From: Paraspadella gotoi
Lineage: Eukaryota; Animalia; Chaetognatha
NCBI GenBank assembly: GCA_051294375.1
Contig: JBJCIZ010001666.1
Location: 46,994-110,993 of the forward strand
DNA: 64,000 bases
Direction: 5' to 3'
Positions 19,468 through 43,859 of the stretch are shown here, piece by piece. The number at the start of each line of letters is the position of its first letter. The first letter of the stretch is position 1. Under the pieces are notes generated by a model. It was not told where the DNA came from. It worked only from the letters and a program-made list of their open reading frames with translations, and did not search any database. Position numbers and translations under genes: made by a program.

Positions 19468-19542
19468 TTTTAATGTGATTCCCGACGAGGCGGTCAGGTA
19501 ACCGGGTGTTCCGTGTGNNNNNNNNNNNNNNNNNNNNNNNNN

Positions 19543-21396
19543 TTTTTTTGGCTATTCCATGGGTTACCGCGTCGTGGACCATCAAAGGTCCATTTTTTTA
19601 CTACAGGTAATTTTTTTTTTCGTTTGAAAAAAAAATCTCGAATATAAACCTTTCAATCTATTTTATTTTTCATCTTAAGTATTAAAATGCCAACGCGACG
19701 ACGACGACGCGACAACGAGGGCGCGACCCGCTGGACAGCATTCGGAAGATCATCTTTGCGACAACAACAACGACGCGCACAGCACGGCGAGGACGACAAC
19801 AACAACAACAACAACAACAACAGGCAACTCCGTCGCTAATCGAATCAACTTCATCAAGGTGCTTTAATGATAAACAATTAATAATTAATCAATAATATAT
19901 ACATTAATTATTTAATTATAAAAAAAATTGTTTTCAATATTTGTGTATAGGACAACAACAGGAGGGAAAGTTCCAGCAGACTCCATAAATAGAACAACAA
20001 CAACAACAAGGCACTCGATTCCAAAAGGAACCACAACATCCACAAGGTGATTTATGATAAAGAATTAATAAATTAATCAAGAATAAATTAATAAATAATA
20101 CATTAATTATTTAATTATAAAAAATTGTTTTCAATATCTGCATATAGGACAACAACAGGAGGCCGAGAACACTACAACAACAACAACAACAACAACAAGG
20201 CACTTCGACATCAAGATCCACAAGGTGATTCAATGATAAACAATTAATAAATTAATCAAATAAATACATCAATTATTTAATTATGTAAATCTATGAAAAA
20301 ATAAAAAAAACATATTTTTTTTCAATCTTAAGTAAACAAAATTTTTTTTTCAACTTACAGGCCAGAAACAAGCCAAACAACGTGGCATCAGAAACAAGCC
20401 AACACACGGCGGCATCAAACACAAACACATCGGATATAAATGATTTAATGATGAATACAATTAATAAATTAATCAAATAAATACAAAATAAAAAAATGTT
20501 TTTCAATTTTCAATTTTTTCTTTTCAGTCTTTGGCTTGTTTCTGATGCCACCGTTGTTTGGCTTGTTTCTGGCCTGTAAGTTGAAAAAAAAAATTTTGTT
20601 TATTAGATGAAAAAAAACTTATGTTTTTTTATTTTTTCATAGGATTTACATAATTAAATAATTGATGTATTTATTTGATTAATTTATTAATTGTTTATCA
20701 TTGAATCACCTTGTATCTTGATGTCGAGTGCCTTGTTGTTGTGTTGTTGTTGTTGTTGTAGTTTTCTCGGGGCCTCTGTTGTTGTCCTATATGCAGATAT
20801 TGAAAACAATTTTTATAATTAAATAATTATTGTATTATTTTATTAATTTATTTCTTGATTAATTTATTAATTCTTTATCATAAATCACCTTGTGGATGTT
20901 TGGTTCCTTGGAATCGAGTGCCTTGTTGTTGTTGTTGTTCTATTTATTGAGTCTGCTGGAGACTTTTCCCTCCTGTTGTTGTCCTATACACAAATATTGA
21001 AAACAATTTTTTTTATAATTAAATAATTAATGTATATATTTATTGATTAATTTATTAATTGTTTATCATTAAGCACCTTGATGAAGTTGATTCGATTAGC
21101 GACGGAGTTGCTGTTGTTGTTGTTGTTGTTGTGTTGTCGTCCTCGCGTTGCTGGTGCCGCCGTCGTTGTTGTTGTCGGCAAAGATGATCTTCCGAATGCT
21201 GTCCACGGGTCGCGCCTCGTTGTCGTCTCGTCGTCGTCGTCGTTGGCATTTTAATACTTAAGATGAAAAATAAAATAGATTGAAAGGTTTATATTCGAGA
21301 TTTTTTTTTCAAACGAAAAAAAAAATTACCTGTAGTAAAAAAATGGACCTTTGATGGTCCACGACGCGGTAACCCCATGGAATAGCCAAAAAAAAA
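19543..21396. repeat. Large inverted repeat (arms 19543-20402 and 20531-21396, ~128-bp spacer)
   Basis: The arms are reverse complements differing mainly by small indels. The left arm abuts a 25-N gap. Confidence 0.9.
20531..21249 (-). CDS. Multi-exon low-complexity (CAA-rich) gene built of tandem exon-intron units; mirror copy on + from ~19687
   Basis: ATG at 21249. Repeating pattern CAAG|GTG(A/C)TT...AT-rich...TATAG|GACAACAACAGGAGG about every 200 bp. Confidence 0.5.
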
Positions 21397-21713
21397 GGCA
21401 GATTGTGGAGAACATTTTTTATGATAATAGTGGGCGTCGAGTGCGGAGCAGTGAAGTGAAGTGAAAGTGAAATGAAGGAGTCCCAGATTTTGAAAATTTT
21501 GAGATAAGAAAAGAAAGAAAAGAAAGTCAAACAAAGATTAACAAAGAAAATCCTGATAAAAAATGGAAATGAATGCTTTTCTTAAAAGAAAGAAAAACAT
21601 TAATTTCCAGTTATTCTTGGCAAAGGTGCCAAAAGTTTGTTTAGGGAAAAGGTTTTTGTTCTGATGAAAACTATTTATTTTACTTATTCTGTCAATTTTT
21701 TTCAATGGAACGA

Positions 21714-21746
<33 letters not shown>

Positions 21747-22214
21747 TCGATTTTGGAGGGAAAGTTTTTTTTCATTATGAAAAGACAAAAGAATAATACA
21801 GATAAAGATTGTACGACATGAGCCTAACCCTATCCATGTTCTTCTCTCTCTCTCTCTCTCTCTCATTGTTTTTTTTTTTCATTTGCTGGTGAGAAGAACA
21901 AATCGCAAAAACAAAGGACTTGCGAGTCGGGATAATCGTTTTCACGCCCCTGATGCGATTGCAGATTTGACCTCTGTTTTTTAGGACGCTGCCAGGTGCG
22001 AAATTTTGGGGGCCGAACGAAATTTGACGAGTGGGATGAATCCTCTGACCCAAAGGTGTTCGTGGAAGGTAGCTTAAAAAGGGGGTTTTTTTTCGGAGAC
22101 CATTTCTTGAATTCGTCCCGCTGCTCGTCGCATCTTATTTTCCTCATTTTTTCGCTCAGACGATTTGACCAGTGTTTTTGCAAAATAGAAATTAAACAAT
22201 TTTGTGAAAAAAGA

Positions 22215-23533
22215 ATGGAAAACTTAAATTTTACCGCTAAATGCTTAATCTGTCGATCATATTTTGATAAAACTGCCAATAAACGGGGAATGAGTTGCGA
22301 GCATGGTCATAGCTATTGCACTCAATGCGTAGAAACGCAAAAATTTGTGACAAAAACGACATTTGTATGTTCGCTTTGTCGATCTCCATTCGTTAAGCCA
22401 TGTGAGGCTTGCAATGATTTTACTTTTAAAAATTTTTTCAATAACAATGAGCTTGAGGCCGCGAGCCTGTTAATTCAGGAACTAGTCGATGAAAATAAAA
22501 AACTGAGGTATTTTTTTTTTTTTTTGAGATAATTAATTTATATTGAACATTATTATAAATGCTTTAATTTAAATAATTAGGGAAACGCTGGGGAAAATTC
22601 GTGAGCGACAAAAACAAAACAAACTAAAAAAACAACAAAAATCTGAAAGCCATGGCGTCTCAAACGAAGAATCGGTAAAAAAACATTTTGTTTTTAAATT
22701 TTCGAATTTTTCATTTTACAAAAAAAGTTTTTAAGTGTTTTTTAATTTTTTTCGATTTTCCTTTCCCGTCCCATCCTTTTTCCTTCGGCGTCATAGCAAA
22801 CGCAATAACGCTGACATTGAGGTTGCCATTTGCGAGGCATCCTCGTCTTCCGGATTAATCAACAACAACAACAACACTTCACAGAACCGGTAAGTCAGAT
22901 TTCTTTCATATTATGCAAATGAGGAAATGAGGAAACGGGTGATTATCATAGAAAACTTATAGCTTTCATATATTTTCCTATATTTAGCTTCATGGAATAC
23001 GATTTTTCGAGAATAAATAACATAAGGTAAATTTTAATGTTTAATATTTTTCATTTTTGAAATGTTATTAAACTAAATGTGTATTTTTGTATAGATCTGT
23101 TTTGACGCCACTTTCTTCGTACGCCTTTGTCGAAAAACCTCATCCTGGTTGGTTTGAAATAATCAAGGAGAAATATGTTGCGATGTCACCTGGGGGTTTG
23201 ACTGAGAAGTCGCCTATTAGTCGTCTTAAAGTTTCTATTCCGGAGGCTCGCGAAATGATTTTTCTATGGGATACTGAGGTCATCCCAAGGGCATTCGATG
23301 AGAAGGAAGCTCTGATTGGTCAGGTGGATTCTTTAATGGGTCCGAAAATTCCATTAAGCGCTTCTATGGCATATGCAATCAATTTGTACAAACCACCTTC
23401 TTCTTACACCGCTAAAGTTAATATTCAACTTAGATTTTACACTTTAGAGGAAACCCAGGTCTTTTTCACTTCATGTACTATCTTTGGGGTTTCTCTGAAT
23501 CGCAAAGAAAGAAAATTTAATTTTTTATTTTAA
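22215..23533 (+). CDS. RING-finger (C3HC4-like) protein, 5 exons
   Basis: CLIC..CEHGHSYCTQC..CSLC. GT-AG introns 22508-22580, 22675-22796, 22890-22987 and 23027-23094 join it to ORF 23087-23533; one 1-nt indel must be assumed in an A-run of exon 2. Confidence 0.75.
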
Positions 23534-24083
23534 GGAATTCGTTCCTTCAGCTTAAAAAAGTTTGAAAAAAATAAAAACTACAAAAAAAAGGGGGACCCGT
23601 TTTTTTCTTTTTTTAAATAAAATTGTGTCAAACTTAAAATTAAATTTTAGAAGTGAAGGGTCCTGTGGTTGTAAGCATATAATTCAAGCTTACTAGATAG
23701 CATTGATCAGATAGCATGTTTAATATCTAAATTTCAATTTTATTTTCTATACATTAATTTTTAAATATTTTTTTTATGTTTTAAGTAATTCAATTTTTCA
23801 TAAAATTAAGTTTATTTTAATATTAATGTGTTAAGAGAATTTATTATTTTAAAAATATTTTTTTTATCCTTTGCATAATAAATATTTTGAATTTCGGTAA
23901 AAAAGATTATATTTTAATTTAAATTATATCATATTTAAAAAATAAAATTTGAAATGAAAAGGTTTTCTGATTGTAAGCATATATTAGCTTACTAGTTATT
24001 ATATTATTCAATAGCATTGTCTTAATGCTTTTGTTTCACTGTTTGAGAGAATTCAAGATTTTGAGTTATTAGTATTTCATTTC

Positions 24084-25259
24084 TTGCATAATCAAAATAT
24101 CCATTCAGTAAAATTTAAAAAAAAATCGAGTTTTCTAACTGTTGAACTGTCTTTAAAAAAAAATGGATCAGTCCGAGTCTCCTTCTTCGCCCATACCGCC
24201 CCCCTCCCCCGCTTTCACCGCCCCCTCAACGCCAAATTTCCCCCCCGGGATCTCCTCCTCCTTCATCCTCATTCATCAACCTCATCCGCTCATGAACTCC
24301 CTCACTTTCATGAAATCCCTCCCATTGGGCGAATGCCATTGTTCGTCGTTAATCACGATTGGCGCGCCGGTTGCGATGCAGTTTCCCAATCCCCATCTTC
24401 GGTATCTGAGGAGAGTGAAGCTTCATGCTACGGGATTCCTAAAAACATGGTTTCGATAAACTTAATTCAAATCATTGACTTTTTATCGCGAGTGAACATT
24501 GAATTTGTCAAGCGACTAAAACGACCATATTCACGAATCCATGAACTGAGATCGAGATTTTATGAGTTTGTAGACTCAGGCATTCTACTTCCGGACGGGC
24601 GCCTGAACGTGAATTTGCGACCGCAGGACGACACCATCGAGGGCACTGACGAATCTGATTGGCACCATGATCAAAGGGAAATGATTAAAAAAAAACTTTT
24701 CACCTTTAACGGACTCGAAAATGTTGATTTTTTCGGCTTAAAATGTTTTTTTCACCAGGTTGAACCTATTTTAGAGACTGAGATACCCTTTCTGTTAAAA
24801 TGTTTAAAATCGACTAATTATAACGAATTTACCTCACATCCATCAAAAATTCAGGATTTAATGTTTAAATTAGGTTGCGAATTGAATATGTTTCAATCCG
24901 TTTTCTCTAAATTTATTATTGGCATGCCTTTTTTAATGAGTTTTATTGATGAAAATAAATATTCTGATTATTGTTTAGACTGTACTAGTTACAATTATCT
25001 TTTTAACCCTCAAAATTTGGATATTATTAGTAAAACCTTTCAATTATTTAAGTCCGAAACTGAAAATCAGTGCTTCTTGAAATCTATGTATAAACGTAAA
25101 TCTAATATATGCGGTTGTGACTTTTATTCTATAATGGACGAAGCTGTAGTTAGACTTATGAAAAAATTATTAAATGGCAAACTGGTTCCATCTTTCGAAA
25201 ATTATAATATAAACATAGATTCAGATAAAATTTATTTCGTTCCAAATACTCAACTATAA
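24084..25259 (+). CDS. Hypothetical Maverick protein
   Basis: 391-aa open frame in AT-rich context. The true start is uncertain (possibly ATG 24163 with a frameshift). No motif recognised. Confidence 0.6.
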   Translation: MHNQNIHSVKFKKKSSFLTVELSLKKNGSVRVSFFAHTAPLPRFHRPLNAKFPPRDLLLLHPHSSTSSAHELPHFHEIPPIGRMPLFVVNHDWRAGCDAVSQSPSSVSEESEASCYGIPKNMVSINLIQIIDFLSRVNIEFVKRLKRPYSRIHELRSRFYEFVDSGILLPDGRLNVNLRPQDDTIEGTDESDWHHDQREMIKKKLFTFNGLENVDFFGLKCFFHQVEPILETEIPFLLKCLKSTNYNEFTSHPSKIQDLMFKLGCELNMFQSVFSKFIIGMPFLMSFIDENKYSDYCLDCTSYNYLFNPQNLDIISKTFQLFKSETENQCFLKSMYKRKSNICGCDFYSIMDEAVVRLMKKLLNGKLVPSFENYNINIDSDKIYFVPNTQL

Positions 25260-25309
25260 ATACTTTATTTAGTTTTCTTTTATATTTAGATTTACCTCAG
25301 TTTCACAAA

Positions 25310-25717
25310 ATGGCGGATAATAAAGAAAATGAACTTTTATCCGAAATGAAAAAAGGAGATGAGTCGGAAAGACTTGAAAAGAACTGTAGAAAACTCCTTA
25401 TTTTTTTCGAAAACTTATTCACTTTTCTCGGCATAATCAGGTCTTCATATTTGGACCTGATTGATCTATACATCAAAGCAGCCTATCGTCCCATAGGGTG
25501 CGAGGGATGCGAACTTCAGGACGGGATCAATAAATTTTTAGTGGGAATTCATCACTTAACCTTAGAAGTAAGAGCCATCGAAAATTCTCACGAATTTGAA
25601 ATTATAGGTGTACAATTTATTAATGAAATTGCTGAGGCCATTTCGAAGGAAACCGGTATTTTTTTTCATAATTCGGCATTTAAAAAAAATTTAATTAATA
25701 ATATTTGCATGCAGTAG
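25310..25717 (+). CDS. Hypothetical Maverick protein (may continue by frameshift to ~26000)
   Basis: 135-aa ORF with AAAATGG start context directly after the previous ORF. Confidence 0.55.
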   Translation: MADNKENELLSEMKKGDESERLEKNCRKLLIFFENLFTFLGIIRSSYLDLIDLYIKAAYRPIGCEGCELQDGINKFLVGIHHLTLEVRAIENSHEFEIIGVQFINEIAEAISKETGIFFHNSAFKKNLINNICMQ

Positions 25718-26350
25718 TAAGTCTTCGCATTGCCTCAATTAAAAATTATCATTTAGGCGTGTAACTCATGCAATCAATCGTTGTAATACCTGTAGTAGAT
25801 CTTCTGCATTTCTGCATATGAATATGTATCGCTTTTTAATGAACAGGTTTCTCAATTTTTTCTCGAACCGAAAAACTGTTATCAGAGTGTTTTGCATGCG
25901 TTTTGAAGGAAAATGAAGACTTAGTTACAAATAATTTTGTTTCTTTTAAAAAAGGGGTTTTAGCAAAAGAAGATTTAGAGCATTTGTTTTCTCGTTTAGG
26001 TTAATTTTTTTTATGTTTTTATATTTATGTTCATGTTTACTTTAAAAATAGATGGATAAATTAAAGAAGAAAAAATATGAACTGATTGATTTGACTCAAG
26101 TGATGATGATGATGATTATGATGATGATGATGATGAAATGAAAAAAAATGATTTTTGACTGTTATGGATTTGTCAAAGAAAATAAAAGTTGAAAATGACA
26201 CGAATGAGGATGAACCTTTAAACTTGTGTTTGAAAGATGAACCTTCTGCAAGCTCCTTACCCAAAAATCTGAACCCGATTTTTTTCTAACTCGGAATCCC
26301 TCGAGTCTATTGAGGACCTTGTTTTTTTAAGTCCTGAGGAATGGACGACC

Positions 26351-28891
26351 TTGGAAATGAATCTGGGTGATTTATCTTCGAGTATTGATTTATCTCCTTA
26401 TTTATTTAACGAACCTATCGTTTCTGTTTCTCCTCCCACTACATCTTCCCACTCGACGGGGGACTCTCCTCGCGTTCTCGGCGAAAAGCCGCTTATCTTT
26501 AACCCTGCATTATCTTTGCCCTCTTTCACGCCCCTAAGACCCTCCTCCAACACGTCGAGGACGAGTACAATGACAACAACAACGACAACGAGGACAATGG
26601 CTACGACGGCGACAACGAGTACAATGCTGGCGACGACGAGTACAATGGCTATGAGTACGACGGTTGATTTCGCGAGCTTGACCACTGACCTTAAGCCGGA
26701 TTTTTTTTCCAAACCTGTTATTTTTCCCTCTTCTCCTAAAGAAAAAACTCTCGAATGTCCCTTGTCTACCAACAGCAGCGGCAGTAGACCAGCCGCTGCA
26801 AACAAAAACTGCAGCGAGATGCTCGTTCACCCAAATATGAACCACTTTTCCAAACTCCATTATGGATGTAGAGGGTTTAATCAGGTTGGATGTGGAAGTG
26901 TGAGCAGAAAAGATGAAAAAAATGACGGAAATGAAGATTATGACGATGATGACGATGATGATGATGATGATGATGATGATGCATTTGAAAAGAACTTTGT
27001 GGCTTCGCGAAAATTTAAGAAAAACATTATTGAAAATATTGAATTAAGCTTTAATTCAGGAAAAAAGAAAAAAATATTAGGGGATTACCATGTTCAGTTG
27101 AGAGAATTAAAAAAGCAATTGTTGGTTCTTTTGGAGAAATATTTAAAAAAATACAAAACTTTAAAATATCACATGACTTTTTTGATAAAATTTCAAAAAG
27201 ATGAAGGAAAGGAATCTCAATTTCCTCAATTTTATTTTGATCAACCATCTCGTTTTCTGTTACAGTCAACTGATTTGTCTGCGCAAATAGATGAGGCATT
27301 TGATCGGATTACTGTAAGGACTCAAGATAAAACCTCATCGGGGTCAGGATTGATTTTCCAACAGATAAAAAAAGTTGATTTAACCATTATTAAAATATCG
27401 GCAAACTTAAATGCTAAAATTGGTTGTTATAAAGTTTTACCCCCCGAAATTATTCACAAACGTGCAACTTTGAACCTTAAGAATAAAGAAAATTCAGATG
27501 ATTGCATCATACTTTCGATTTTGGCCGGCCTTTATCATAAAGATATTCAGGATGGTGTCAAAAACCGCCCGTCTTCATATGAAAAGTTTAGAAAGAGACT
27601 AAATTTGGGAGATTTAAAAGGACCCTTATCTTTGAAAGAAGTGTATGAAATTGAAAAAAAAAATGAATGGTTGGGGATTAATTTATACTGTTTTACAAAG
27701 AAAAAAATAAAAAAAAAATATGGGAATAAACTGATTCAGAAAAAGAAAGGAAAAAAATTTATATGTGTTTTTTTCCCATATCGTTTAACAGAAAGGAATG
27801 ATAAAGAAAATGTAAAAATTGTTAATCTTTTATTAATTTCAACCGGAAAAGCATCAAAGGACAATTTAATGCATGCAGTAACAATAACGAATTTTAGTCG
27901 ACTTATATCAAGCCAGTATTCACGTCATTCCCACGCCATGCATGTTTGTGTTGGCTGTTTATCTTGTTTTAAAACTTTACAAAAGTTGAAAAAACACAGA
28001 GTCCTTTGTTCTGCAAACGAGATCAAACAAACTGTTAAATTTCCGCCTCCTAATACAAAACTCGAATTTACAAGGCACGAATCTCGTATTTTTAAGCTTA
28101 TCAACATATATGCAGATTTTGAAACCCAGCGTCGTGAAAGGAGTTTTGCGAAGGCTAATCCGGAGACCCACGAAGTTTTGGGTGAAATTTCTATTCCTGT
28201 GGAAATAAAGAAAAAATATCCGTGGGCGAATAAAAAAATTCACTTGACGCATTTGTCAAACTGTAAAAATTGTTCATTTGTTAAACCATGCAGTAAATTA
28301 GAGGTTTCCAATGAAGTTTTGGCGGAATTGGTTCCAATATCATACAGTTATTATGTAAGTGCAAATTTTTCACACCCTGAATTAAATAAAATAAAATATT
28401 ATATTGGAATCGACGCTGCTACAAAATTTTGTGAAGCTATTCGCGAAGAGATGAAAGTAATACACCAAATAATGTTTGAAGATGAGGCTCTACCTTTAAT
28501 TATGACAGACGAAGATGAAATTAACTTTCAAAATGCGACTCATTGTTATATCTGTCGAATTCCATTTTCTAAAGAAATAATTAAAAACAGAGACCACCAG
28601 CATTTCCGTTTGGCACCAGATGCGGGGGAATTTAGAGGTGCTAGTTGCACATCTTGTAATTTGAAAGCTTATGAGAGGCCCGTTATTAACTTGTATTTCC
28701 ATTGTTTAAAATTTGATCAGAATTGTTTGGTTCTCGGGTTCTCAGAAAATAATGCTAATGGAGCATTAAAATCTATGACAAATTGCTTATTTAAATCATC
28801 TCAAGAACTCATAGGGTTTGATCTTGTATGGAATTGTGATTTTTGTCGTGAAAAACACTTAAAAGAAATTCAAGAAAACAGCGACGACGAC

Positions 28892-28926
<35 letters not shown>

Positions 28927-30263
28927 CAATGATGATTCTGACAGCGAGAGTGGAGACAGCGATGCGACCGATGATAGCAACGATATTGAAATGTGTGATT
29001 TAAACAAACAAAACATGAAAATGAATGAGTCAAGTGAAATGATTAAAGTATGTAGCTGCAAAAATATATGTATAACAAGAGTGCAAGATTCCTATCGTTT
29101 TTTAACTGCATCCCTTTCGGATTTGATTTCAATTTCATTCCGTGACTGTTATCCTTTATTTTGCGAAAAATGCATACTTGTAGATGACTTAAGAATTTTG
29201 TGCGCAGAATGCGACAAGAAAAAAAATCCTCAAGTAATTTTTACTTCCGTTTTTCAATATTTGTATGACAATGAATTAGACCTTAGTTTCTTTAATCTTA
29301 TCTCTTCCGGCAAGATGGCTTTTCCGTACGATTACCTTACATTAGATCGATTAAATGAGATCGAAATACCGGGCAAAGAGGCATTTAGAAATGAATTAAA
29401 TAAAAATGATATTTCCGACGAATGTTATGAAAACACGAGGCAAATTTATGAAAGTTTTAAACTACGTAATTTAAAGGATCTGTTGATAATATATAACTGC
29501 TTGGATGTCATGTTTCTTCGAGACATATTCGAAGAATATCGCAAAATTGCATTTCAAGAATATTCAATTGACCCAAGTTATTATCCAACATTAAATTCAT
29601 ACAGGTTCGTGATTGACCGAGTGGAATGAGAAGAGAGAAGAAACAGTTGATCGAAGAGTTCGCGAGAATCGAGAGGCGAGAATCGAGAAGCGAGAGAGAC
29701 CCAGAGAGAGAGAGAGAGATAACAAAGAGAGAGAGAGAGAGAGACGCGGGTGACTTCCTAGCATTCAAATGTTTTGTTTTGGACTCACATGCGGTTTTAA
29801 AAATTAATATTCTCTCTCTTTCTTTAGCTTTTCGATTATGCTCTTTCAAACTGGGATAAAATTGATCTGTTTGACGAATCTCAAAGCGAAATTTACTACA
29901 AATTCAAGGCTCTAACAAAAGGTGGTCTAGCGGGGGTGTCGAAGAGAGCTGAGGTTGCGGTGAACAACGAAGTTGGTGGAAATGAAGGTCAAAATTACTC
30001 AATTACACTAATTTTCGAGGATTATCCAGAATTTATATGGTTTTTGTATGAGTTTGTTTTCTTCCTGTTGGTTCTTTTTATAAGTTAAATGAGTACGAAG
30101 TTGAGCAACTTTTTCAGAAAATCCGCCTCGAGAACCAGCATCTTCAGTGGACCGGAAAAGGAGCCGAGAGGGTATGTTATTGGCAACCGAATCTTATTTT
30201 GTATTTACTCTATTGTTAAAGTAATTTTTTTTTTACTAACTTTCTATTTCTTTGTCCTTTTTC

Positions 30264-30307
<44 letters not shown>

Positions 30308-32108: not shown

Positions 32109-32145
<37 letters not shown>

Positions 32146-32515
32146 GCGGCGGCGGCGGCCGCGGCGGCAACCACGATGGTGTGTTGTGTGCCTTCCTTCG
32201 TTCCATCCCACGACTGGAAATCAGTCTGACAAACATGGTCAAGGGAAAGGAGTCCAACGCTCGATCAAGGACAAAGAGCTAAGACACATTCACTTTTAAA
32301 AAACTTTATTTCACTGATTTGGCGATTCGAAACGAAAATCGTCGACTCAAACATTTGGACTTTAAAATCTATTTCGAAACTCTCACTAAAACTTCTCTCA
32401 GTAACTTGGAAATTAAACGGTTTTGGATTCTAGATTGCACTCTTTGCCCTATAATCATCCTTTTTGCAAACGTTTTCAAGCTATCTGCTATATAAAAAAA
32501 AGCCGGAATATCTGA
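26351..32515 (+). CDS. polB: Protein-primed family B DNA polymerase (vOTU-like, Zn finger, exonuclease with EndoVII-like insert, polymerase); 6 introns; 3' half has 1-nt indels
   Basis: GSG..YKVLP..NSDDCIILSILA..HAV (vOTU-like), IYADFET (ExoI), CYIC..RDHQH..FRGASCTSCN, KMAFPYDY, YNCLDV (ExoIII). After splicing: KGGLAGVSKR, NLYGFCMS, GFILEV, KNCVNSIYGKT, YIGAHILEFAK, YDTDSFIF, GKMKDE, LKPKLYS, KTSLSNLEIKR. Introns: 29605-29827, 30172-30324, 30884-30978, 31094-31189, 31294-31374, 31478-31547. The real start may be ATG 26164. Confidence 0.95.
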
Positions 32516-32963
32516 CTCTTTGGTGCTAGTTTTTTTTTTTTTAGTTATTTTTTAGTAAAAGAAAGAACAAGATTTTTTCTTTTTTACAATTTTTATTTTT
32601 TTATTCAGCATCAATTAGTTTAACAATTTTTTTTTTCAATTATTATCATTATTTACAATTAATTAGTAGTAGTAGTTTAGTATGCAATTAATCATTTACG
32701 AAATTATTATTATTATTATTATTTTTTTTTAGTACAACACACTAATCAATATTTACAAATTCAATTATTATTAATTTCGGATTCGGTCATCAAGGTGACG
32801 GTTTTTTTTTGGTTTTTTTTTTAGCTTTTCCTTTTGTTCTCTCTTCGTGGTTCATTTAGTTATTATAGATTATTATCGTTGTTGTTTTTTTTTCTTTTTT
32901 CTTTTGTGATCGTGATTTAGACTTAAGGACAGATTAATCAATCAATCATTTAATGTCTCTTCA

Positions 32964-34166: not shown

Positions 34167-34360
34167 TTTGTAGGTGAGTTGATTTTCTATCTTCTTCTCA
34201 AGTAGAAATGAATCTTTAAATTGATTTTTCTTTTTTTATACGTGCGTCCCGCCTCAATTTTGTAGCAAACTATTTTCCAAAACATATCATATTTTAATAT
34301 CCCTTCATCTCCCCCTCCTCTTCATTTTTCCTCTCTTCGTTACGACTTGCCATCGTAACT

Positions 34361-34407
<47 letters not shown>

Positions 34408-34411
<4 letters not shown>

Positions 34412-34677
34412 GGTCGTAAGTTGCGACGGTAGATTTCCAATTTTGTAACCGGCTGAACATATTTAGGCTCTCTTTGCATTAAATCTATCAAATTATTAGG
34501 ATTTGATTTATTGCCTCCATTTTTCTTGGACCTTTTTCTTTTCCTACTGCCGCCCCCAACTTGCATATTTTTCCAAGATCCTTTCTTTTTTTTTCTTCTT
34601 TTTTTTCGATGCACTGTGAAGGCTGGGATCTCGGAATTTGACATTCCTTTCGTCTTCCTTCTTCTCCTCTTACCCAT
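34408..34677 (-). CDS. Small basic core-like protein
   Basis: K/R-rich with a QVGGG adenain-type site; immediately downstream of the protease. Confidence 0.6.
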
Positions 34678-34715
34678 CTTTTTTTCTTTTTAATTTTTTT
34701 AATTTTTTCACTTCC

Positions 34716-35247
34716 TTATATACTCTTGCCAAGCAAAGGGAGAGAAAATAGTTCTTCATTTACCAAAGATGTGGGTTCAGCTTCAAACGCGCTAACGATA
34801 CTAAATGCTAAGGCATCATAATACCATAATTCATTTTCATGTTTATCTATTTCATATATCTTATATAAAATATCTTTTAATGAATAATTTCTAGCCGTGT
34901 AAAGCACATAGATTATATTGTGATGTCCGCAAGTGGCCGAATAATCGTTTTGAAGGGGATAATTATTATAGTAAACTGGAATAGAATTATTTGTCTTTTT
35001 TTCTATGTAATCACGAAATGTTTGATTTATACTCGGAGGAAAACCGAGGGAATCAAAATATACTAAATAATCTTTTTTTATATGAAAACTCGACCAATGG
35101 GAGCCGAGACTTTCTCGACCAGAATGGTTGCAAGTGAATAGACTTCCAATCGGTGCATTTAATGGAAGCATATCGGCCGGATATGTGCCCAAAAATACTT
35201 TTTTAGCATAAATATCACTCGTCACTATTTTATCTATTGTTAACGTG

Positions 35248-35252
<5 letters not shown>
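34716..35252 (-). CDS. Adenain-family maturation cysteine protease
   Basis: FLGTYPAD, GSHW, YFDSLG, PLQ..TCGHH, with the catalytic H/D/Q/C residues intact. The likely start is MNTL at 35252; the upstream extension is (GA)n-derived. Confidence 0.93.
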
Positions 35253-35294
<42 letters not shown>

Positions 35295-35355
35295 TCTTGG
35301 TCTCTGTCTTTTTTGTTTTTTTTTCTTGGTCTTTCCGTTTTTTTTATTTCTGCCC

Positions 35356-36738
35356 TTAGTAGTCGAATGAAATATTTCTGTTTTCATTCAAAAATATACT
35401 AGCCCCAAATTCTGAATATAACAAACATACTATTGCATCATTTTTTGAAGTACTTTTAAAAGTGATTTCCAGGCGACTTGTTGCCGTTTGGCGAACATCG
35501 TCGTGATCTTCATTAACACTTTTATAGTTTCCAGTATCTAAGGCAAAGAAAGTTAACCCATTTGCATAATTATCATAACTTATTGTCGCCGGAATGTCGT
35601 ATTTAAAATTTTCTCTAACCATTGAAAAATAGGCTTCTTCATATTTTTTTTGCGCAAAGTCCATATGCTCTAACCCTTGAGGAGAAGGATGAACTACTCC
35701 GTCTAAGACCAGCTTCAAAGATGTTATATCAAAATGTTGAAATTCGTAACAGCTTTTATTTCCAACCCCTAGAAATGCTTTTTGGGATACAAATCCAATC
35801 ACGCAAGTACTAGGTTTTATATTTTGATAAAAAATAGAATCTATGTAAACAGACTTTGAATTCGCGGGAATTACGAATGGACGAACACTGGATTGACGAA
35901 CTGCATAATTTATTCCTCCATTTTTAATTAAATCTTGTTCCAATGATAATTTAAGTGATGGTAAAATGTCCACGCGTTTTACAAGAACCCTCATTTGTTT
36001 ATATGATATTTTATAATCATTTATATTTGCAGCATTACTTCTACACGAGAATTCGATTGAATTCTTTTTGAAGTCTAATGTGATAGGCGTGAGAGCTGGT
36101 AATAATTTACTCTGATTTGAAATCCCTGTATAAATCTGCCCATAAATCTTAATTACTTTAGAATTAGCTGTTAATAAACAACGTTTTTTAAATCCACTGT
36201 CCGGAGCATTCGGATCAGCTCGATTTTGATCGAATTCTGTGTCCCCATAAAACCCTTGCAATCTCTGCTTGTTATCTCTCAAATCCTTATTATAATATAA
36301 TGTATTTATAAAAAATGATAAATAACTTTGAGTATTGTAACTATCAGTAATTGCACTTCCGTTTATTCTCAATGTGATTGAGGAAAACAAAGTGTTTGCG
36401 ATACCATCCTCAAAACCTATTGAATTACCAGTGGGGCCAGCGGGGGGAGTTCCAGTGGGCGGCGCAAAATTATCAAGAGACGAACCGCCAGCTTTTTCTA
36501 TTGTAACATCTGCCTCAAACATCAAAGAACTTAAGTCTGTATATGATGAAGATAACCCAATGTCAAAGGAAATATTACTGCTTGTGTCACTTAATGAGGT
36601 TAATGGCGTAAAAAATTCATATCTGCATCCTAAAATTCCTTTTTGCTTTAACGGAACAGAAAATAAATTCAAAGCGGCACTGATTGACTCCTCTTGAGGA
36701 GAATATCCCGCCGGCCTTACCAAACGATCATCAGTCAT
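35356..36738 (-). CDS. Major capsid protein (double jelly-roll)
   Basis: 460 aa; LNLFSVP..Q, YTDLS, NTLFSSITLRING, QSKLLP, IGFVSQKAFLG..YEFQHFDI, LEITF..CLLYSEF are typical of Polinton MCP. Confidence 0.92.
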   Translation of the reverse strand: MTDDRLVRPAGYSPQEESISAALNLFSVPLKQKGILGCRYEFFTPLTSLSDTSSNISFDIGLSSSYTDLSSLMFEADVTIEKAGGSSLDNFAPPTGTPPAGPTGNSIGFEDGIANTLFSSITLRINGSAITDSYNTQSYLSFFINTLYYNKDLRDNKQRLQGFYGDTEFDQNRADPNAPDSGFKKRCLLTANSKVIKIYGQIYTGISNQSKLLPALTPITLDFKKNSIEFSCRSNAANINDYKISYKQMRVLVKRVDILPSLKLSLEQDLIKNGGINYAVRQSSVRPFVIPANSKSVYIDSIFYQNIKPSTCVIGFVSQKAFLGVGNKSCYEFQHFDITSLKLVLDGVVHPSPQGLEHMDFAQKKYEEAYFSMVRENFKYDIPATISYDNYANGLTFFALDTGNYKSVNEDHDDVRQTATSRLEITFKSTSKNDAIVCLLYSEFGASIFLNENRNISFDY

Positions 36739-36748
36739 ATTTAAAATC

Positions 36749-37306
36749 TTAAGAAAAAATATCTAATTTTGTATTTTTTCTTCTCTTTTTTTTTTTAATT
36801 TTTTTTCTTCTTTTTTTTAATCGCTTTCCTTTTCCTTCTTGCGAAATGATTGTACCTTTCATATTTCCTTTCCCTTTTATACCTTTCTTTTTTTTTTTAA
36901 CCAATGATTCTGCCAATGTATCTGCTCCCCTCTTCAAAGCAGCGGATGCCTTACTCTTTCCCTCATCCAATGCTTTTTTTCCCGCACTTTTAACGCTTCT
37001 GTTCACAAGTAAATCAGCCAACCCTGTTGCTCCCGCACTTGCCGTTCCTTTAGCTAAGTCCGAAACTATTCTTTTGCTTATTGGTTTAGCCATTTTTAAA
37101 GCCGGTTTGATGCTTTTTGTCGCACCCTGTATCAATGGCTTTACATATGTTAATAATTTCTTTAATATTTCACTCATTACTCCTCTTCCTCTCTGTCTCC
37201 TTAACATAAATCGCATAGGAAGTCGGGATCCTATGTTGGGCGGAAGCCGCCGCTGCGGCAATTTTATTGTGTGTAACATTTTTTTTTTTAATGTTTCATT
37301 TGACAC
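36749..37306 (-). CDS. Basic core/DNA-condensing protein with adenain sites
   Basis: QRGRG followed by an amphipathic helix, QEGKG and a K/R tail ending DIFS; located between the minor capsid and MCP genes. Confidence 0.8.
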   Translation of the reverse strand: MSNETLKKKMLHTIKLPQRRLPPNIGSRLPMRFMLRRQRGRGVMSEILKKLLTYVKPLIQGATKSIKPALKMAKPISKRIVSDLAKGTASAGATGLADLLVNRSVKSAGKKALDEGKSKASAALKRGADTLAESLVKKKKKGIKGKGNMKGTIISQEGKGKRLKKRRKKIKKKKRRKNTKLDIFS

Positions 37307-37318
37307 AAATTTTATTCC

Positions 37319-38251
37319 TTATATAGCATTTTTAGCCAGACGAAATCCAAGTGTAAGATAAGTGGGACCGGCTCTTAATTTTGCGTCCTCCGAATAAAAA
37401 TTTTTTAAAACAATTAAAATATTGTCAATGTATGACCGACCAACGGGATGAAATATAAGTTCTTTGAAAGTAAAATTCTGTCTACCTCCCAAATTTTTAT
37501 CATCTATAGGCACTACTCTTAGCAATCTTGAATATTTTGACCCCTGGATCCAATCTTGAATTATGTCGCAATAACATAAAATCACATTATCCGGTGACAT
37601 GTTAGGATTAAAAAAAAAATGAGAAGATTCTTCGTCGTCGCACTCTATGTCATTTTGTTCCTTAAAAAATCTCTCCTCATATCCTGTTATTTTTCCATTT
37701 TTGTCCTTGATAGGATATTCATAACTTGGTCCCTTCTTTGGTATTCCTACTGTTGTATAAGCAGTGTTAGACGGGGCGTCGGCATAAACTCCTAATAAAA
37801 ACACCATTTTTCCATATAATCTCAAATTAATCCAATTTTCTACAACATTATAATAAACATAACGATCTATTTTGTTATATTCCAATATTTTTATGTCCTT
37901 CAATCTTGGCACGGATTGCCAAATTAATTTATTAATTTCATCCGTTAATCTTTCTGCAGTGTCGTAATTACCAAATGGAACTACAAATTCTAATTTTTGC
38001 CCATAAACTTTTCCAGGAGCCATTGGATCATCAAATTCCGCCAAAAAGTCAAAAATAACAACTTTATGATATATCTTTGATTCTTCCGGAATGTTATATG
38101 TCGAATTTATTAAGGATAATTCAACTAGTGCCACTTCATAATTTTCATTCAATATTACAGGCTCGGGCAATGCATTGCGAAAATTATAATGTGTATTTGG
38201 AAACTGATCGATAGAATCACTGCTCATTAATTGTATTAGAAAATCTAACAT
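37319..38251 (-). CDS. Minor capsid (penton) protein
   Basis: N-terminal FLIQLMSSDS..FPNT..F...LP..I.L..YEVALVEL and C-terminal CYCDII..GS..SRLLRVV are typical of the Polinton minor capsid. Confidence 0.88.
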   Translation of the reverse strand: MLDFLIQLMSSDSIDQFPNTHYNFRNALPEPVILNENYEVALVELSLINSTYNIPEESKIYHKVVIFDFLAEFDDPMAPGKVYGQKLEFVVPFGNYDTAERLTDEINKLIWQSVPRLKDIKILEYNKIDRYVYYNVVENWINLRLYGKMVFLLGVYADAPSNTAYTTVGIPKKGPSYEYPIKDKNGKITGYEERFFKEQNDIECDDEESSHFFFNPNMSPDNVILCYCDIIQDWIQGSKYSRLLRVVPIDDKNLGGRQNFTFKELIFHPVGRSYIDNILIVLKNFYSEDAKLRAGPTYLTLGFRLAKNAI

Positions 38252-39527
38252 CTTTTAGCTTGTTCAATTCTTTCTTTGTCATCCAGGTTGCCTTCTCCGA
38301 ATTTGCACCTTTCACCAAATATAATTTTTCACCTCCTATTTTTTTCCCAGATCGTAAGGATCGCTTATCTACAACTTTTGTTTTAGTAACGAAAAAATAA
38401 TCTTTTTTTTCCGACACTGACGGTTTCACTTTCTGTAGTTGATATGCGTAATAATGCTTTTGTTTATTTTTTAGCCTATACAAGGGCGGAACACCGGGAA
38501 TTTTTTCACCGATTTCAAATGCAGAATCATCGAATTCCTTCTCATACCCTCTCTTAAATACTTTCTTTTCAAGTTTAACTCGAACCAGATCACCCACTTT
38601 TAAAGGAAATTTCATGTTTTTAAATTTCTCTTTATGTTTTCGTCTTTCATCCTGATATTTCTTCCTTAAGAATTTTTCGTTAGTTGACAAAGATGCCTCA
38701 AACGGGGAAAGATTATAAAGTGACGGAGTTTTTCGAAGGTTTAATGATAAAGTAACCAAGGGCAATATTTTAGGCCAATTATAATCTTTTAATGCATAGC
38801 AAGTTTTCCACAATAACTTTTCAATTTGAAAGTTGTAATTCTCAATTATATATGATTTTTTCCCTGTCTTTGTAACATAACCCTTTACCTCAAACTCTGC
38901 AAACAAATCTTTTACTTGCGCATTATCAAATTCTTTTCCCGCGTCAAAATGCACTGCAGAAGGCACGCGCCAATTGTTCTGCTCAAAAACAGACAAAATG
39001 GCCGCTCTCACTTCCGGTCCACTTTTACTTTTCAATGCACGCGTCCACCCAAAACGACTGAAAGCATCGCAACATGTAAGAAACATTCGAAAAGGACGCC
39101 CAAACGATTCCAAACTCCCTACATCTACCAGATCCATGCACCATTGATAATTTTGAAACAAACGCACTGTTTTTCGATAGTGGTCACGTGGTATTTTAGT
39201 CTTTTTAAATAAAGTATAGGTATTTTGACCTGATAAAAAATTCTTTACATCTTTCCTACTAATCTTGGGATCCTCTAATTTTGCTTGTTTAAATAATGCC
39301 TCAATGCCCCCAAATGATCCCGGGTTTTCTATGGAATAATATATTTTTTTTAAAATAGAATTTTTTTTTTCATCTTGCAATTCGTTTTGTGAATTAGGTT
39401 GCTCATCCTCACTCTCATCTTTTTCAGCTTCTCCCAAGTCACCTTGGTCAACGCGTCTTTCTCCCAAGGCACCACGCTCTCTCTCACGATCTTTATTCTC
39501 TTCCTTCTCCATACTCTTTGATATCAA
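38217..39527 (-). CDS. int: Retroviral-like DDE integrase (c-integrase) with chromodomain-like tail
   Basis: YY...PGSFGG, WCMDLVD, DAFSRF, FDAGKEF, IIENYN, LKVGDLVRV, FKRGY, YLVK..TW. Confidence 0.95.
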   Translation of the reverse strand: MISKSMEKEENKDRERERGALGERRVDQGDLGEAEKDESEDEQPNSQNELQDEKKNSILKKIYYSIENPGSFGGIEALFKQAKLEDPKISRKDVKNFLSGQNTYTLFKKTKIPRDHYRKTVRLFQNYQWCMDLVDVGSLESFGRPFRMFLTCCDAFSRFGWTRALKSKSGPEVRAAILSVFEQNNWRVPSAVHFDAGKEFDNAQVKDLFAEFEVKGYVTKTGKKSYIIENYNFQIEKLLWKTCYALKDYNWPKILPLVTLSLNLRKTPSLYNLSPFEASLSTNEKFLRKKYQDERRKHKEKFKNMKFPLKVGDLVRVKLEKKVFKRGYEKEFDDSAFEIGEKIPGVPPLYRLKNKQKHYYAYQLQKVKPSVSEKKDYFFVTKTKVVDKRSLRSGKKIGGEKLYLVKGANSEKATWMTKKELNKLKDVRFSNTINEQ

Positions 39528-40408
39528 TCAAAAATCCCTTCGTATCTCAAACCCTCAGAATCTTTTTCTTTTTCTTTTTCTTTTTGTTTTTGCAATCTTG
39601 TTTTCGGTTGTGAAAATATTAATGATATGTTTGAATCCCCCTCACTCGTTTTTTTTCTTTCACTCACAGTCTTTTTTCTTCTTGCTTGAGCCTGGGCCAA
39701 GGACGAGGAAGCCGTTGACTTCTTTGTTTTATTTTCCGCACTTATGCTTAATTTCCTTCTTTTCTTTGGGGTGAAAGATAATAAATTACTTTCTTCGTTT
39801 ATGTTTATATTTTCAGACGGTTGGAGAACGGGAATTTTAGATTTTGTATTTGCAGCTAACCAATATATTTTTGCATTAACTTGAAATGGACTGGTCGAAC
39901 CAGATGCAATCAAATCTTTTACTATTTTATCTTTATTTCCTAAGTACAAATCATTATGATAAATACCTTTATCAGTTATTTTTATATTTGGTATGCTTTC
40001 AATTATTTTTAAGATTTTCTGTTCATAGGGATCTTGCAAAACTATTGAATTTTTCTTTTCTTCCGATGCGTCAGCTTTTATCTCCTTCTCTCCCCTGCTC
40101 GATCTCAATTGATCTAAAATTGGATAAATTCTCTCTTGCAAGGTGCTCCAATCTTGCGCAGTTTGATTCTCCTCTAATCTTTTATTCTTCATATACTCTG
40201 CTTCTAATTCTCTCACTTTCACGTCGTCTGCCACTTTTTTTAAATCATATTTATTATTTGGAATCCCAGAAGACTCAATTTGAGTAGCTAAATTAGAATC
40301 CAACATAGATTTATTATATAATTTAGATAATTCTTGCGCCGAAACTAAATATATTTTTTCCAAATATTTCAAAGGAGCCTGGGGAGCGGAACCAACATAT
40401 CCAGTCAT
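39524..40408 (-). CDS. Hypothetical Maverick protein upstream of the integrase
   Basis: 294-aa ORF overlapping the integrase start, KIYLVS near the N-terminus, PKKRRK NLS-like motif. Confidence 0.7.
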   Translation of the reverse strand: MTGYVGSAPQAPLKYLEKIYLVSAQELSKLYNKSMLDSNLATQIESSGIPNNKYDLKKVADDVKVRELEAEYMKNKRLEENQTAQDWSTLQERIYPILDQLRSSRGEKEIKADASEEKKNSIVLQDPYEQKILKIIESIPNIKITDKGIYHNDLYLGNKDKIVKDLIASGSTSPFQVNAKIYWLAANTKSKIPVLQPSENININEESNLLSFTPKKRRKLSISAENKTKKSTASSSLAQAQARRKKTVSERKKTSEGDSNISLIFSQPKTRLQKQKEKEKEKDSEGLRYEGIFD

Positions 40409-40804
40409 TTTTATTACTATTTTTTATCTTCTTCTTTTTTTTTATTCCGTCTATTTGCTAGTTGGAATGATAGACTTATTAATGTTGGTAATAACGTGCT
40501 TATTAATGTTCCCAAAAACTTTCCCTCTTGTAATACACCTTTTCTCTTTTTCATGGAAATTGATTTAAGAGACAACTTATAAATTTGGCTTTTATATGGT
40601 TTTTAGTTTTTTTATCAAGTCAGAATTTACTGCAATATTAGTCAATAATAAATTTCTTTGCTACTTCGGCTAATGTTTTAATTAAATCTTTAGATTTTGA
40701 TGAATTTAAATAACTTTTTTGATCCTTTTTTCTTAATGAATTTACATATTTCATTTCAGGAATACTACTTTCAAGTCTACGACCAGCCGCAGCATTCCTC
40801 TCAT
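40380..40804 (-). CDS. Small Polinton protein ending in a Q-x-G site plus amphipathic helix (1-2 indels; ends approximate)
   Basis: DLIKTLAEVAK, then after a frameshift ISMKKRKGVLQEGKFLGTLISTLLPTLISL. This resembles the QxGGFLxxLL ORF usually found after the Polinton ATPase. Confidence 0.65.
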
Positions 40805-41626
40805 TTAGTCTTGAATTTCCCTTCACCATCATGCCTTTCACGGTAAGCAATCCCAAAACCTTCTTCATTCGGTAAAAAATTAGTTCTAATTCTTAATTCT
40901 TCGGGAGTTGCTATTGTAAAATCAATTAATAAATACCCGTATGGCCAATTAATTAATTGACTGTTTTGATGGGCTTCGTGTAATATCTGAGGACGGGAGG
41001 GTGAAAATTGGCTTCCTAACCTTAACAATGTTGTTTTGTCTCGTAAATATTTTGTTATTAATAAATAATGACAGTTTAAACTTATCTTTCGAAAATTTCT
41101 TGGGTATTTTTCATAAATATCGTGACAAGTTATAATTACTGATATATTCCGATGATGGCTTAGGCAAGTATAGAGGGACTCTAAATAAAATTGATTTAAT
41201 TTAGTAATTAAATCGTCGTAGATTAGGAGAAGATGATTAACGCCAATTAAATTTTCTGGATCTACGACACTTTCGTCCACCCCTTGACGAAAGATAACTT
41301 TATTTGCCAAATCAGGACTTTCAAATTCTTTATTCTCTTGATCATAAAAATATAAAATTTTGTCAGGTGGAACATCTATTATTTGATCAGAATAACGACA
41401 TATTGATAATAGTTTGTGTGATTTCCCAGTAAATGAGCTTCCGGAAATGCTGCGGAAAAAAAATGGAAAGAAAACAAAATTTGTTTAAATTAAAACTTTT
41501 TAAAAAATATTTTTCTCGATTTTTTTATCAATTTTTTTTTCTCCCCTCATTATTGTTTTTCTTTTATACTCACATCATCGTAAACGGAGCGCGAAATCGT
41601 AAATCGAAATTTTTTATTTCATCCAT
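40801..41626 (-). CDS. A32/FtsK-like packaging ATPase, 2 exons
   Basis: Removing intron 41450-41573 (GTGAGT..CCGCAG) gives MDEIKNFDLRFRAPFTMIISGSSFTGKS (Walker A), then LLIYDDL (Walker B), SHHRNIS, ISLNCHY, PYGYLLID and RIRTN. Confidence 0.95.
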
Positions 41627-41705
41627 TTTCTCCAACTAATTTTTTAATTTCTTTTTTTTAATCTACTCTCGTAATTGGATTTGGATACAAAATAGTTAAA
41701 CTTAG

Positions 41706-41891
41706 TTAGACTCTCTGACCTAAATCCGAGTCCGTATTTTGTTCTCTATTTCTTTTTATAAACTTAAAAATTAAAAAAATAATTACAATAATTAAGATAA
41801 AAAGCCTTTCAAAAATTTCGAACTGGGTCAAATTGTAGGGTGCTTTTTCTTTGCCCGAGTTCAAATTTAGGTCGCAATAAGTGTGATTCAT
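41706..41891 (-). CDS. Small single-pass membrane protein
   Basis: 61 aa; LFILIIVIIFLIF followed by KFIKR, similar in design to 18901-19467. Confidence 0.5.
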   Translation of the reverse strand: MNHTYCDLNLNSGKEKAPYNLTQFEIFERLFILIIVIIFLIFKFIKRNREQNTDSDLGQRV

Positions 41892-41950
41892 TTTTTCTGC
41901 GTTTTTTTTTTTTTTGTATTTAAATNNNNNNNNNNNNNNNNNNNNNNNNN

Positions 41951-43700
41951 TGTTGGCGCCGCGTTTGACGACGTCGACGCTTGGCGCAGCACGAACGACG
42001 CCGAGGACGAGGACGAAAGGAGGCCGACCGCTGCCGCAATGCCAATACCAATGCCGATGCTGAAATGGACGAGAAAGAGAAAAAAAATAATTTTTCATCA
42101 TTTTTTAAATTAACCAATCAATCAATCAACATCAATCAAGAATAATCAATCAATCAATAATCAATCAATTAATCATTTAAATCTTACTTGAAACTACTGG
42201 CAACGAAGTCTCGACACTGCTCGAGACGATTGGAGACGGCGAGTACGACGCGATGAAGAGGAAGAGCAAAAAGAAGGAGGTTTCGGCGCAATAGCAACAC
42301 TCATAATAAGTGTTGAACTAGGAAAGGAGCAAGAAAATGCGTTTTTGTTGTTTGTTTTTGGTGCTTGAATTCATATCATTTAAAACTTACTTTGACCGCT
42401 CTGCAACGCAGGTCGAAAGACAGCTGCTGCTGCTTCTTTCGTCGTCACCGTCCTCGTTGTTGTCGTCGTCTCCCCCGGGCCTCCGCTTCCTTCTCCTTCT
42501 TCCCCTTCTTTGGCTTCTTCGTCAAAGGTAATTGCTCTGAAAAGAAATGAAACATTATTTTTTAATGCATTAAATATAATTTATTTTTAAACATTGCATC
42601 TCTCCTTTTTCTTACCGGTTTTATCGTCCTCATCGGCGCCGGCGACGGCGGAGTTGTTGTTGTCGCCATTGTTGTTGTTGTTGTTGTTGTTGTCGTCGTT
42701 TGCGGTATCGGATTTAGGGGTGATGTCTGCATAAGAATATTTCTAAGCGTTTGTACTTCCAAAACCCGCGTGTATAAGCTCGAAATACTCTGTAGATTCC
42801 TCATATGGCCCTATTTGATATTTGATATTTGATATTTGATATTAGTAATTTGTGATTACCGCTCAATTAATAAATGTTATTTTTCCCTTAAAAGTTAGTA
42901 TGTTAGTAACCCGTTAATTTTTTGTGATTAATTTTGGTCGGATTTTTTATGTATCTGTTGTTATTGTTGTGGACCCTTACTATAAAATAATTCTGCCAGC
43001 ATCGGCAGCAAAGTTCGTTGATGGCCGCCCTCGAAGACGTCGTCCCACAACCGAAACACGCATCAACCAGCGTGGGTTTTTCCATGTGGTCCGGGAACCG
43101 GTAGTTGAATGGATCGGCTGTAGATAAAGAAAAAAAAAGTCATTATGTAGTTAGCAGAAGTCAATAGTTTAAACTTTTTTATTGGACAAATATTTCATTT
43201 TTTAAAAGCTCACCATCGTGGGGGAGGGGATTGAAGAATGAGTCCCATTCATCAAAGCTGGTTCAGCATAGCAGTTAAATACGGGGGGCGTTCTTCCCCC
43301 TCCGACCCTTTTTCTTCGCAGACTGAGATAAAAAAGAAGAGGGAGGGGAAAAGGGAAAACAAGATTAAAACAAGAATATTGATTAATAAATAATCCCTTT
43401 AACTACGACTTACAATGTCGCCCAAAGAACGCTAAGCCGCGGCGGGTGTGCATAAAGCACTCGGTTTTGATGATCGCTGGTAGGAAAATTTAGAAGGTCT
43501 GACTTGACACATACATTTTTTAAATCAAAAAATTTAAACCTACATTCCGATTGCCCCATGTTGCGGAGCCTTCACGCACGCCTAAAATTAGTTTTATCGA
43601 GAATTTTAATTTACAAAATATTATTCATAAAAATGACAACAACAACAACAACGACAATTGGTGTACCACGTAGGACGGCGACCCAGTCGAGTTGAGCCAT
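41951..43700 (-). CDS. Micro-exon-rich hypothetical gene (about 8-9 exons), 3' end lost in a gap
   Basis: Kozak ACCACCATGG at 43700. GC-rich exons alternate with AT-rich GT-AG introns, with donors near 43414, 43214, 42980, 42615, 42390 and 42187. One exon has CFGC..CCRC. Confidence 0.55.
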
Positions 43701-43817: not shown

Positions 43818-43851
<34 letters not shown>

Positions 43852-43859
43852 CAACCAAC

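Follow-up and report, generated by a model that had tools for sequence, protein, structure and literature searches.

The 64,000-nucleotide (nt) stretch of Paraspadella gotoi DNA analysed here (contig JBJCIZ010001666.1; the window) contains, at about 20.5-44 kb, an element that by its gene content is a divergent Maverick/Polinton. Many DNA viruses of eukaryotes have Polintons close to their root. We consider it probable that two of its core genes, the polymerase gene pPolB and the packaging ATPase gene, are split by real spliceosomal introns that were gained under selection, and that host splicing is needed for both. An earlier note, made from the sequence alone, had called Maverick/Polinton core genes generally intronless, in agreement with the available portions of two sources (PMC8097293, 10.1101/2022.07.12.499685); this description is customary, not a formal criterion, and does not hold for the element described here. 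The same note had placed at least 11 GT-AG introns exactly, six in pPolB, one in the ATPase gene and four in a RING-finger gene, and all 11 intervals are present in the window with GT...AG ends.

All parts of pPolB lie on the forward strand. Exon 1 (26164-29604) encodes the N-terminal region, the exonuclease motifs and an Endonuclease VII-like insert (PF02945, E 8e-4), with one frame change near 26280. The six intervals that follow are intron 1 (29605-29827; 223 nt in the window, with a GA repeat and the weakest donor, GTTCGT), intron 2 (30172-30324; 153 nt, CT repeat), intron 3 (30884-30978; 95 nt), intron 4 (31094-31189; 96 nt, within polymerase motif C with its catalytic DTD), intron 5 (31294-31374; 81 nt) and intron 6 (31478-31547; 70 nt). 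The first reading frame is 1118 codons long and ends at a stop at 29629, which is 25 nt inside intron 1 and upstream of polymerase motif A. Comparison with homologues places the conserved C-terminus in the last exon (31548-32495), and the exonuclease and polymerase motif regions were all found, in the expected order. From about 31620 to 32220 the last exon is GC-rich and of low complexity (Pro, Glu, GCG repeats), a segment without obvious splice sites that is missing from homologues. The ATPase gene (40801-41626, reverse strand; Pox_A32 match, E 0.024) consists of exon 1 (41626-41574), an intron (41573-41450) and exon 2 (41449-40801), joined according to homology; its 124-nt intron reads GTGAGT...CGCAG and sits directly upstream of Walker A. 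As expected of U2-type introns, all seven of these core intervals combine GT-AG ends with pyrimidine-rich acceptors and frame-compatible positions. A branch-like motif is present in just five of the 11 introns.

To place the junctions, every frame-compatible donor/acceptor pair up to 36 nt from each of them, canonical or not, was scored against homologues. In the first test, which used 555-1606 open donor/acceptor pairs per junction and 9-11 pPolB or five ATPase homologues, the named pair was the top GT-AG pair at all seven core junctions (six in pPolB, one in the ATPase gene). Among the top 15 joins, the length of the named interval was also the most frequent one at six of the seven, the exception being intron 4; for intron 2, 14 of the top 15 joins removed 153 nt. 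The chance expectations of 0.002-0.07 for each junction give a product of 4e-14, which is overstated because the flanking frames were picked by eye. In the second test, based on local hidden Markov models built from 72-76 other pPolBs, the named pair was again the top GT-AG pair at all six pPolB junctions, and it ranked near the top of all joins for intron 1 (18 of 1037 equal or better), intron 3 (14 of 1508) and intron 6 (2 of 1004). Homology argues strongly for four core introns (pPolB introns 1, 3 and 6 and the ATPase intron) and moderately for pPolB introns 2, 4 and 5.

Twenty related viral loci were found by exact peptide motifs, a search that favours uninterrupted genes. In 18 of them a single stop-free open reading frame (ORF) covers pPolB profile positions 725-1110; the other two, one with an ORF ending at 1083 and one with a fragmented gene in abutting pieces, contain no intron-sized gap. 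The intervals in the P. gotoi element behave as spliceosomal introns and not as random decay.

Independent sequence data are consistent with this picture. Nine sequencing runs from three studies contain the region, and none is on record as RNA. The contigs of four runs (X1, X2, X5 and X9) were compared with the window over 28960-31960, with depths of about 600 in X2, 50 in X1 and 20 in X5, values from which copy number cannot be read. X5 leaves 31182-31686 uncovered, and X9 reaches 14 of the 30 bins. Single DNA contigs span intron 3 in X1 and X5 and introns 5 and 6 in X1 and X2, an X9 contig also spans intron 6, and DNA contigs cover both ends of intron 1, the middle of which was skipped as a repeat. 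None of the four runs has an intron-less joint in this interval. The intervals are not copy-specific, since short-read DNA contigs of three runs, from two studies, retain them and no joint lacks them. Loose ends mark places within introns 1, 2 and 3 where contigs no longer agree with the window or among themselves. Where X5 extends into intron 2, near 30200, it has a five-letter repeat that is missing from the window, so that intron sequence varies among samples. An X9 contig whose start coincides with the first base of intron 5 was not used, as it is a single low-depth contig and contigs cannot show RNA ends.

The same comparison bears on the reading frames of the window. Between 30316 and 31094, the window differs from single contigs by 18 gaps in X1 and likewise in X5. 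Insertions and deletions relative to the window, as far as the 12 of 42 listed go, are common to the DNA runs that cover them, and most frame changes of the window are therefore likely to be assembly errors. The claim in the earlier note that splicing restores conserved motifs in frame accordingly holds at the junctions; within the exons, pPolB in the window shifts frame many times, which the earlier note had left unmentioned. Evidence on selection comes from exon 2, where two variants of 29973-30090 coexist in X1 and X2 at about 2:1. All five differing sites are third-position and synonymous, with a probability by chance of 0.014 for the four transitions, or 0.0016 with the fifth site, which adjoins an indel. 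This is a slight but direct indication that the protein sequence of exon 2, accessible only by way of intron 1, is maintained.

As to the origin of the introns, each of introns 5 and 6 forms a hairpin over its whole length and is introner-like, which is a new observation here. Among 19 introns tested, end-to-end pairing has a p value of 0.001 for intron 5 and 0.0005 for intron 6, and compared with shuffled sequences intron 5 folds with a z of -5.4 (0 of 200 as good) and intron 6 with a z of -2.8 (4 of 200). Intron 6 also has a 4-nt direct repeat across its junction, which includes the AG/G splice context and may not be a target-site duplication (TSD). Inverted ends mark many introners, according to the accessible part of PMC9860276; introners are recognised by terminal inverted repeats (TIRs) and/or a TSD, and among the introns here only 5 and 6 have such inverted ends. 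The end-to-end hairpin is not significant for intron 4 (p 0.10) or the ATPase intron (p 0.45), although the folding of intron 4 does surpass that of shuffled sequences (z -3.9) through pairing of an A-run with a T-run. Pairwise likeness among the 11 introns amounts to simple repeats; as the introns are not copies of one another, a single introner family cannot explain all of them. A 5' motif common to these two hairpin introns was discarded, having been drawn post hoc and being at chance level (30 of 100 shuffles). Alternatively, the stems of introns 5 and 6 may aid splicing instead of marking an introner origin.

Compared with known animal Maverick/Polintons, the element has the same pPolB, integrase, ATPase, protease and double-jelly-roll capsid genes in about 25 kb, as far as the available text of three sources goes (PMC8097293, PMC10748475, 10.1101/2022.07.12.499685). 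However, their core genes are described there as intronless, whereas here six GT-AG intervals are found in pPolB and one in the ATPase gene. Nematode Mavericks similarly carry intron-bearing accessory genes near an element end, but in the portions of 10.1101/2022.07.12.499685 that are available their introns arrive with captured host genes, in contrast to those in the polymerase and ATPase genes here. The dinoflagellate eupolintoviral elements (PMC12166617, PMC11957031) resemble the present case in having intron-forming insertions in Polinton-type proviruses. In the accessible parts of these two papers the insertions are mostly treated as secondary, and no splicing or selection evidence is given for interrupted core genes; the introns described here, by comparison, are mutually unlike, with no multi-copy family shown, and exon 2 varies synonymously. 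Mirusviruses, which are unrelated large protist viruses, likewise have core viral genes with GT-AG introns of about 80 nt; in the part of PMC12768974 available, morphogenesis genes are enriched in such introns, a few of which code for endonucleases. In the present element, the introns cluster in the polymerase gene, the capsid gene has none, and no intron encodes a protein. The nuclear 'evolutionary trap' proposed for mirusviruses in the same partial source (PMC12768974) may nevertheless serve as a model, being the nearest functional analogy. No description of spliceosomal introns in Polinton core genes under selection was found in the literature searched, which consisted mostly of open-access main texts without supplements. 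The accessible portions of PMC10748475 and its preprint, PMC12220804, PMC11296320, 10.1101/2024.03.25.586562, 10.64898/2026.10.13.758929 and 10.64898/2026.07.28.741278 do not mention spliceosomal introns in core genes.

The remaining gene content is that of a Maverick/Polinton. The element spans about 23.5 kb (20531-43990), or about 25 kb when counted from 18901, with both ends uncertain; the usual range is 13-25 kb. The genes from 32964 to 40423 are all on the reverse strand. They include an uninterrupted retroviral-like integrase (38217-39512; PF00665, E 1.3e-8, above the cut-off), which was also matched in 12 related viral loci, and an uninterrupted adenovirus-like maturation protease (34716-35252), which matches ORFs in 6 of the 20 Polinton loci (best E 5e-9) and has no Pfam match. 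The translation of the latter shows the His/Asp/Gln/Cys pattern typical of such proteases. The major capsid protein gene (35356-36738), also uninterrupted, has a product with 0.98 likeness to protein clusters in which 15% of members have a double-jelly-roll-like domain and animal phyla are most frequent. All listed structural matches of its low-confidence predicted model (pLDDT, the predicted local distance difference test, 40) are double-jelly-roll capsids (mavirus, Sputnik, PBCV-1), with a best E of 1.6e-8, in keeping with a double-jelly-roll capsid of the Maverick/Polinton type. The integrase, protease, capsid and ATPase frames are open. An uninterrupted ORF at 37319-38251 is presumably a minor capsid protein, judging from its N-terminal pattern and its position; it has no match to Pfam families or among the 20 related viral loci. 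Three further ORFs in this part, encoding 423 amino acids (32964-34235), a basic protein (36749-37279) and 299 amino acids (39524-40423), have no family match, as is true of two or more ORFs upstream of pPolB on the forward strand (24015-26158). In this upstream gene there is a candidate 52-nt AT-rich GT-AG interval (26000-26051, forward strand) that was not in the earlier note.

The element has no close relative among the sequences searched. The nearest named pPolB matches are from weevil and mealybug; pPolB is about 30% identical to its relatives, and the best identities across searches are about 30-40%. A metagenome scan with the capsid protein returned no close relative among 72 candidates, and a viral scan with the integrase none among 11. 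In a quick tree without class-labelled references, pPolB is on a long unsupported branch (2.18). An early label, 'pPolB2', was dropped, as the quick-method tree left the placement unsupported.

Intron candidates also occur in accessory genes of the element. The homology tests cover the seven core introns, and the 15 candidates in the RING gene and two terminal genes rest on sequence features. The RING-finger gene (22215-23533, forward strand; zf-RING_2, E 0.001, below the curated cut-off) has five candidate exons, separated by candidate introns at 22508-22580, 22675-22796, 22890-22987 and 23027-23094. The first, third and fourth preserve an open frame, and the second, in the present assembly, is out of phase. 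A protein-cluster search with the last exon gave nothing at 0.9 (best 0.85). The terminal genes, both on the reverse strand, have 11 candidate introns, four left and seven right, with donors at the 92-99.7th percentile of the GT sites of the element and a GC content of 13-32%, compared with about 40-60% in most flanks. The left one is a Thr-rich micro-exon gene (20531-21329) with candidate introns at 21329-21257, 21076-20984, 20888-20787 and 20709-20574, the last three of which lie within tandem exon-plus-intron modules of about 188 nt that are 73-75% alike. The right one (41706-43413, with a 25-N gap at 41926-41950) comprises a Cys-rich exon, Thr/Ser-rich exons and hydrophobic segments; its candidate introns are 43413-43323, 43213-43118, 42980-42887 (weak), 42859-42790 (weak), 42615-42537, 42390-42318 and 42187-42060, and the acceptors of the candidates numbered R2 and R3 are weak. 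It is plausible that the RING and terminal-gene candidates are real introns. The Cys-rich exon (CxxC...CCxC, 42990-43050, reverse strand) resembles an A20-type zinc finger, in which case the RING gene and the right terminal gene would presumably be two ubiquitin-related accessory genes.

The ends of the element lie in poorly assembled sequence. Maverick/Polintons have TIRs of 100-1500 bp and TSDs of 5-8 bp, as given in the available text of PMC10748475. On the left, there is an inverted duplication of the terminal gene (19543-21394), with 66 mismatches and 68 gap openings between arms that are 91.5% alike. It starts at the edge of a 25-N gap (19518-19542) and is probably an assembly artefact. 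Its seam is at 20530/20531, and the left limit of 20531 set in the earlier note is thus not the end of the element. Beyond the gap, an ORF with a hydrophobic segment and a Thr/Pro/Glu-rich tail (18901-19517, reverse strand) may supply the final exon of the left terminal gene, in which case the element would be longer. On the right, a 1.26-kb fold-back (43364-44624, centre near 43990; arms 93.9% alike, with 34 gap openings and 19 mismatches) is an almost perfect hairpin at its centre, where the loop measures 5 nt, and its second arm is not followed by a gap. Its possible origins are a read artefact, a host fold-back element and the junction of two terminal repeats. The arms of both duplications differ chiefly by indels. 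The ORFs at 18901-19517 and 41706-41925 (reverse strand) have similar hydrophobic segments followed by basic residues, and each adjoins a 25-N gap downstream of a Thr-rich terminal gene; from their translations, both terminal genes may encode mucin-like membrane proteins. The element is flanked by a 49-nt satellite (2400-4340) and by two dispersed repeat families (15419-16008 and 45400-46450; 1872-2217 and 18059-18487), which is consistent with a repeat-rich host chromosome. Long ORF fragments at 51525-55200 (reverse strand) give the impression of a decayed transposase and have no Pfam match.

Several observations speak against functional introns in an active element, and some of them suit an alternative in which a decaying Polinton has unspliced small insertions (fold-back elements, microsatellite DNA) with coincidental GT-AG ends. 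No listed contig spans introns 1, 2 or 4, where repeats were skipped, and the spliced form was not seen in any of the four runs. X9, which is only guessed to be RNA (depth 3-6), has three contigs, one of which crosses intron 6 unspliced and holds intron 5, and another of which holds 73 nt of intron 1; this may be retention if X9 is mature RNA, and X9 could be DNA in view of its low depth and longest record of 25 kb. In the second homology test, many joins were equal to or better than the named ones for intron 2 (629 of 1540), intron 4 (776 of 1193) and intron 5 (206 of 489). Introns 5 and 6, the hairpin-shaped ones, have no further copy within the 64-kb window. The selection signal consists of five sites in 50 nt, site 29021 in exon 1 differs between runs at a first position and changes the residue, and three of five isolated differences from the window that are common to the DNA runs alter a residue in the local frame of the window. 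The 12 of 42 indels are too few to establish an open frame through all exons. In addition, Genewise takes insertions in decayed Mavericks for introns, and introners in dinoflagellate elements look mostly secondary, in the available parts of PMC8097293 and PMC11957031, respectively. Against decay, however, all seven core intervals have GT-AG ends, frame-compatible positions and pyrimidine-rich acceptors, the variation in exon 2 is synonymous only, and the frame changes of the window are largely missing from short-read contigs, which leaves this alternative quite improbable. It is hardly credible that the intervals are artefacts of a noisy long-read consensus. The window is indeed rich in errors, as the gaps relative to X1 and X5 attest, the repeat of intron 1 is garbled, and both ends are fold-backs next to gaps. 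Nevertheless, introns 3, 5 and 6 in full length and the two ends of intron 1 are present in independent short-read contigs, an X9 contig is identical to the window at 31294-31711 (0 differences), and an artefact origin is largely refuted for introns 3, 5 and 6.

Real introns could also reside in a single resident or domesticated, immobile locus in which the variants are alleles or haplotypes and the host keeps the genes. A search for a TIR pair or TSD found none, the comparison of the left and right ends giving only simple repeats, which is a further point against an active element; the lack of a close relative and the long pPolB branch fit such a locus as well, and decaying giant-virus insertions with introns have been reported in the accessible text of PMC12768974. 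However, the integrase, protease, capsid and ATPase frames are all open, which would be more than domestication usually keeps, and since both ends are within duplications beside gaps, missing TIRs prove little. We consider a resident locus unlikely, even if the sequence itself would allow either a mobile virus lineage or a resident or domesticated copy. The earlier note had proposed a spliceosome-dependent lineage under selection; what stands is that the intervals behave as introns and not as random decay, that related viral pPolB genes lack them and that exon 2 varies synonymously; host splicing is probable and mobility possible.

If pPolB and the ATPase gene are indeed split by spliceosomal introns, host RNA polymerase II would transcribe the element into pre-mRNA, the spliceosome would have to excise six introns for the polymerase and one for the ATPase, and the capsid protein, protease and integrase would be expressed without splicing. 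On unspliced RNA, translation would stop 25 nt into intron 1, ahead of any polymerase motif. Introns 5 and 6 would have come from short fold-back, introner-like insertions, the left terminal gene may have multiplied an intron by tandem duplication, and introns, once in core genes, would bind the element to the nucleus. More tentatively, and with less than even probability, the element may represent a polintovirus lineage that still moves, that depends on splicing both to replicate and to be packaged and that acquired its polymerase introns from short fold-back insertions while functional; retention of the weak intron 1 would then give the N-terminal and exonuclease part only, a possible on/off switch for replication.

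In the available text of PMC8097293, a Polinton is counted as 'intact' only if its core ORFs are uninterrupted. If the spliced core genes of this element are functional, such an intron-blind criterion would miss active elements and score them as decayed, and the host nucleus would be their fixed site of expression. The element would then also be a compact, polarised case of intron gain, with intronless relatives and with fold-back insertion and tandem exon-intron duplication visible in one element.

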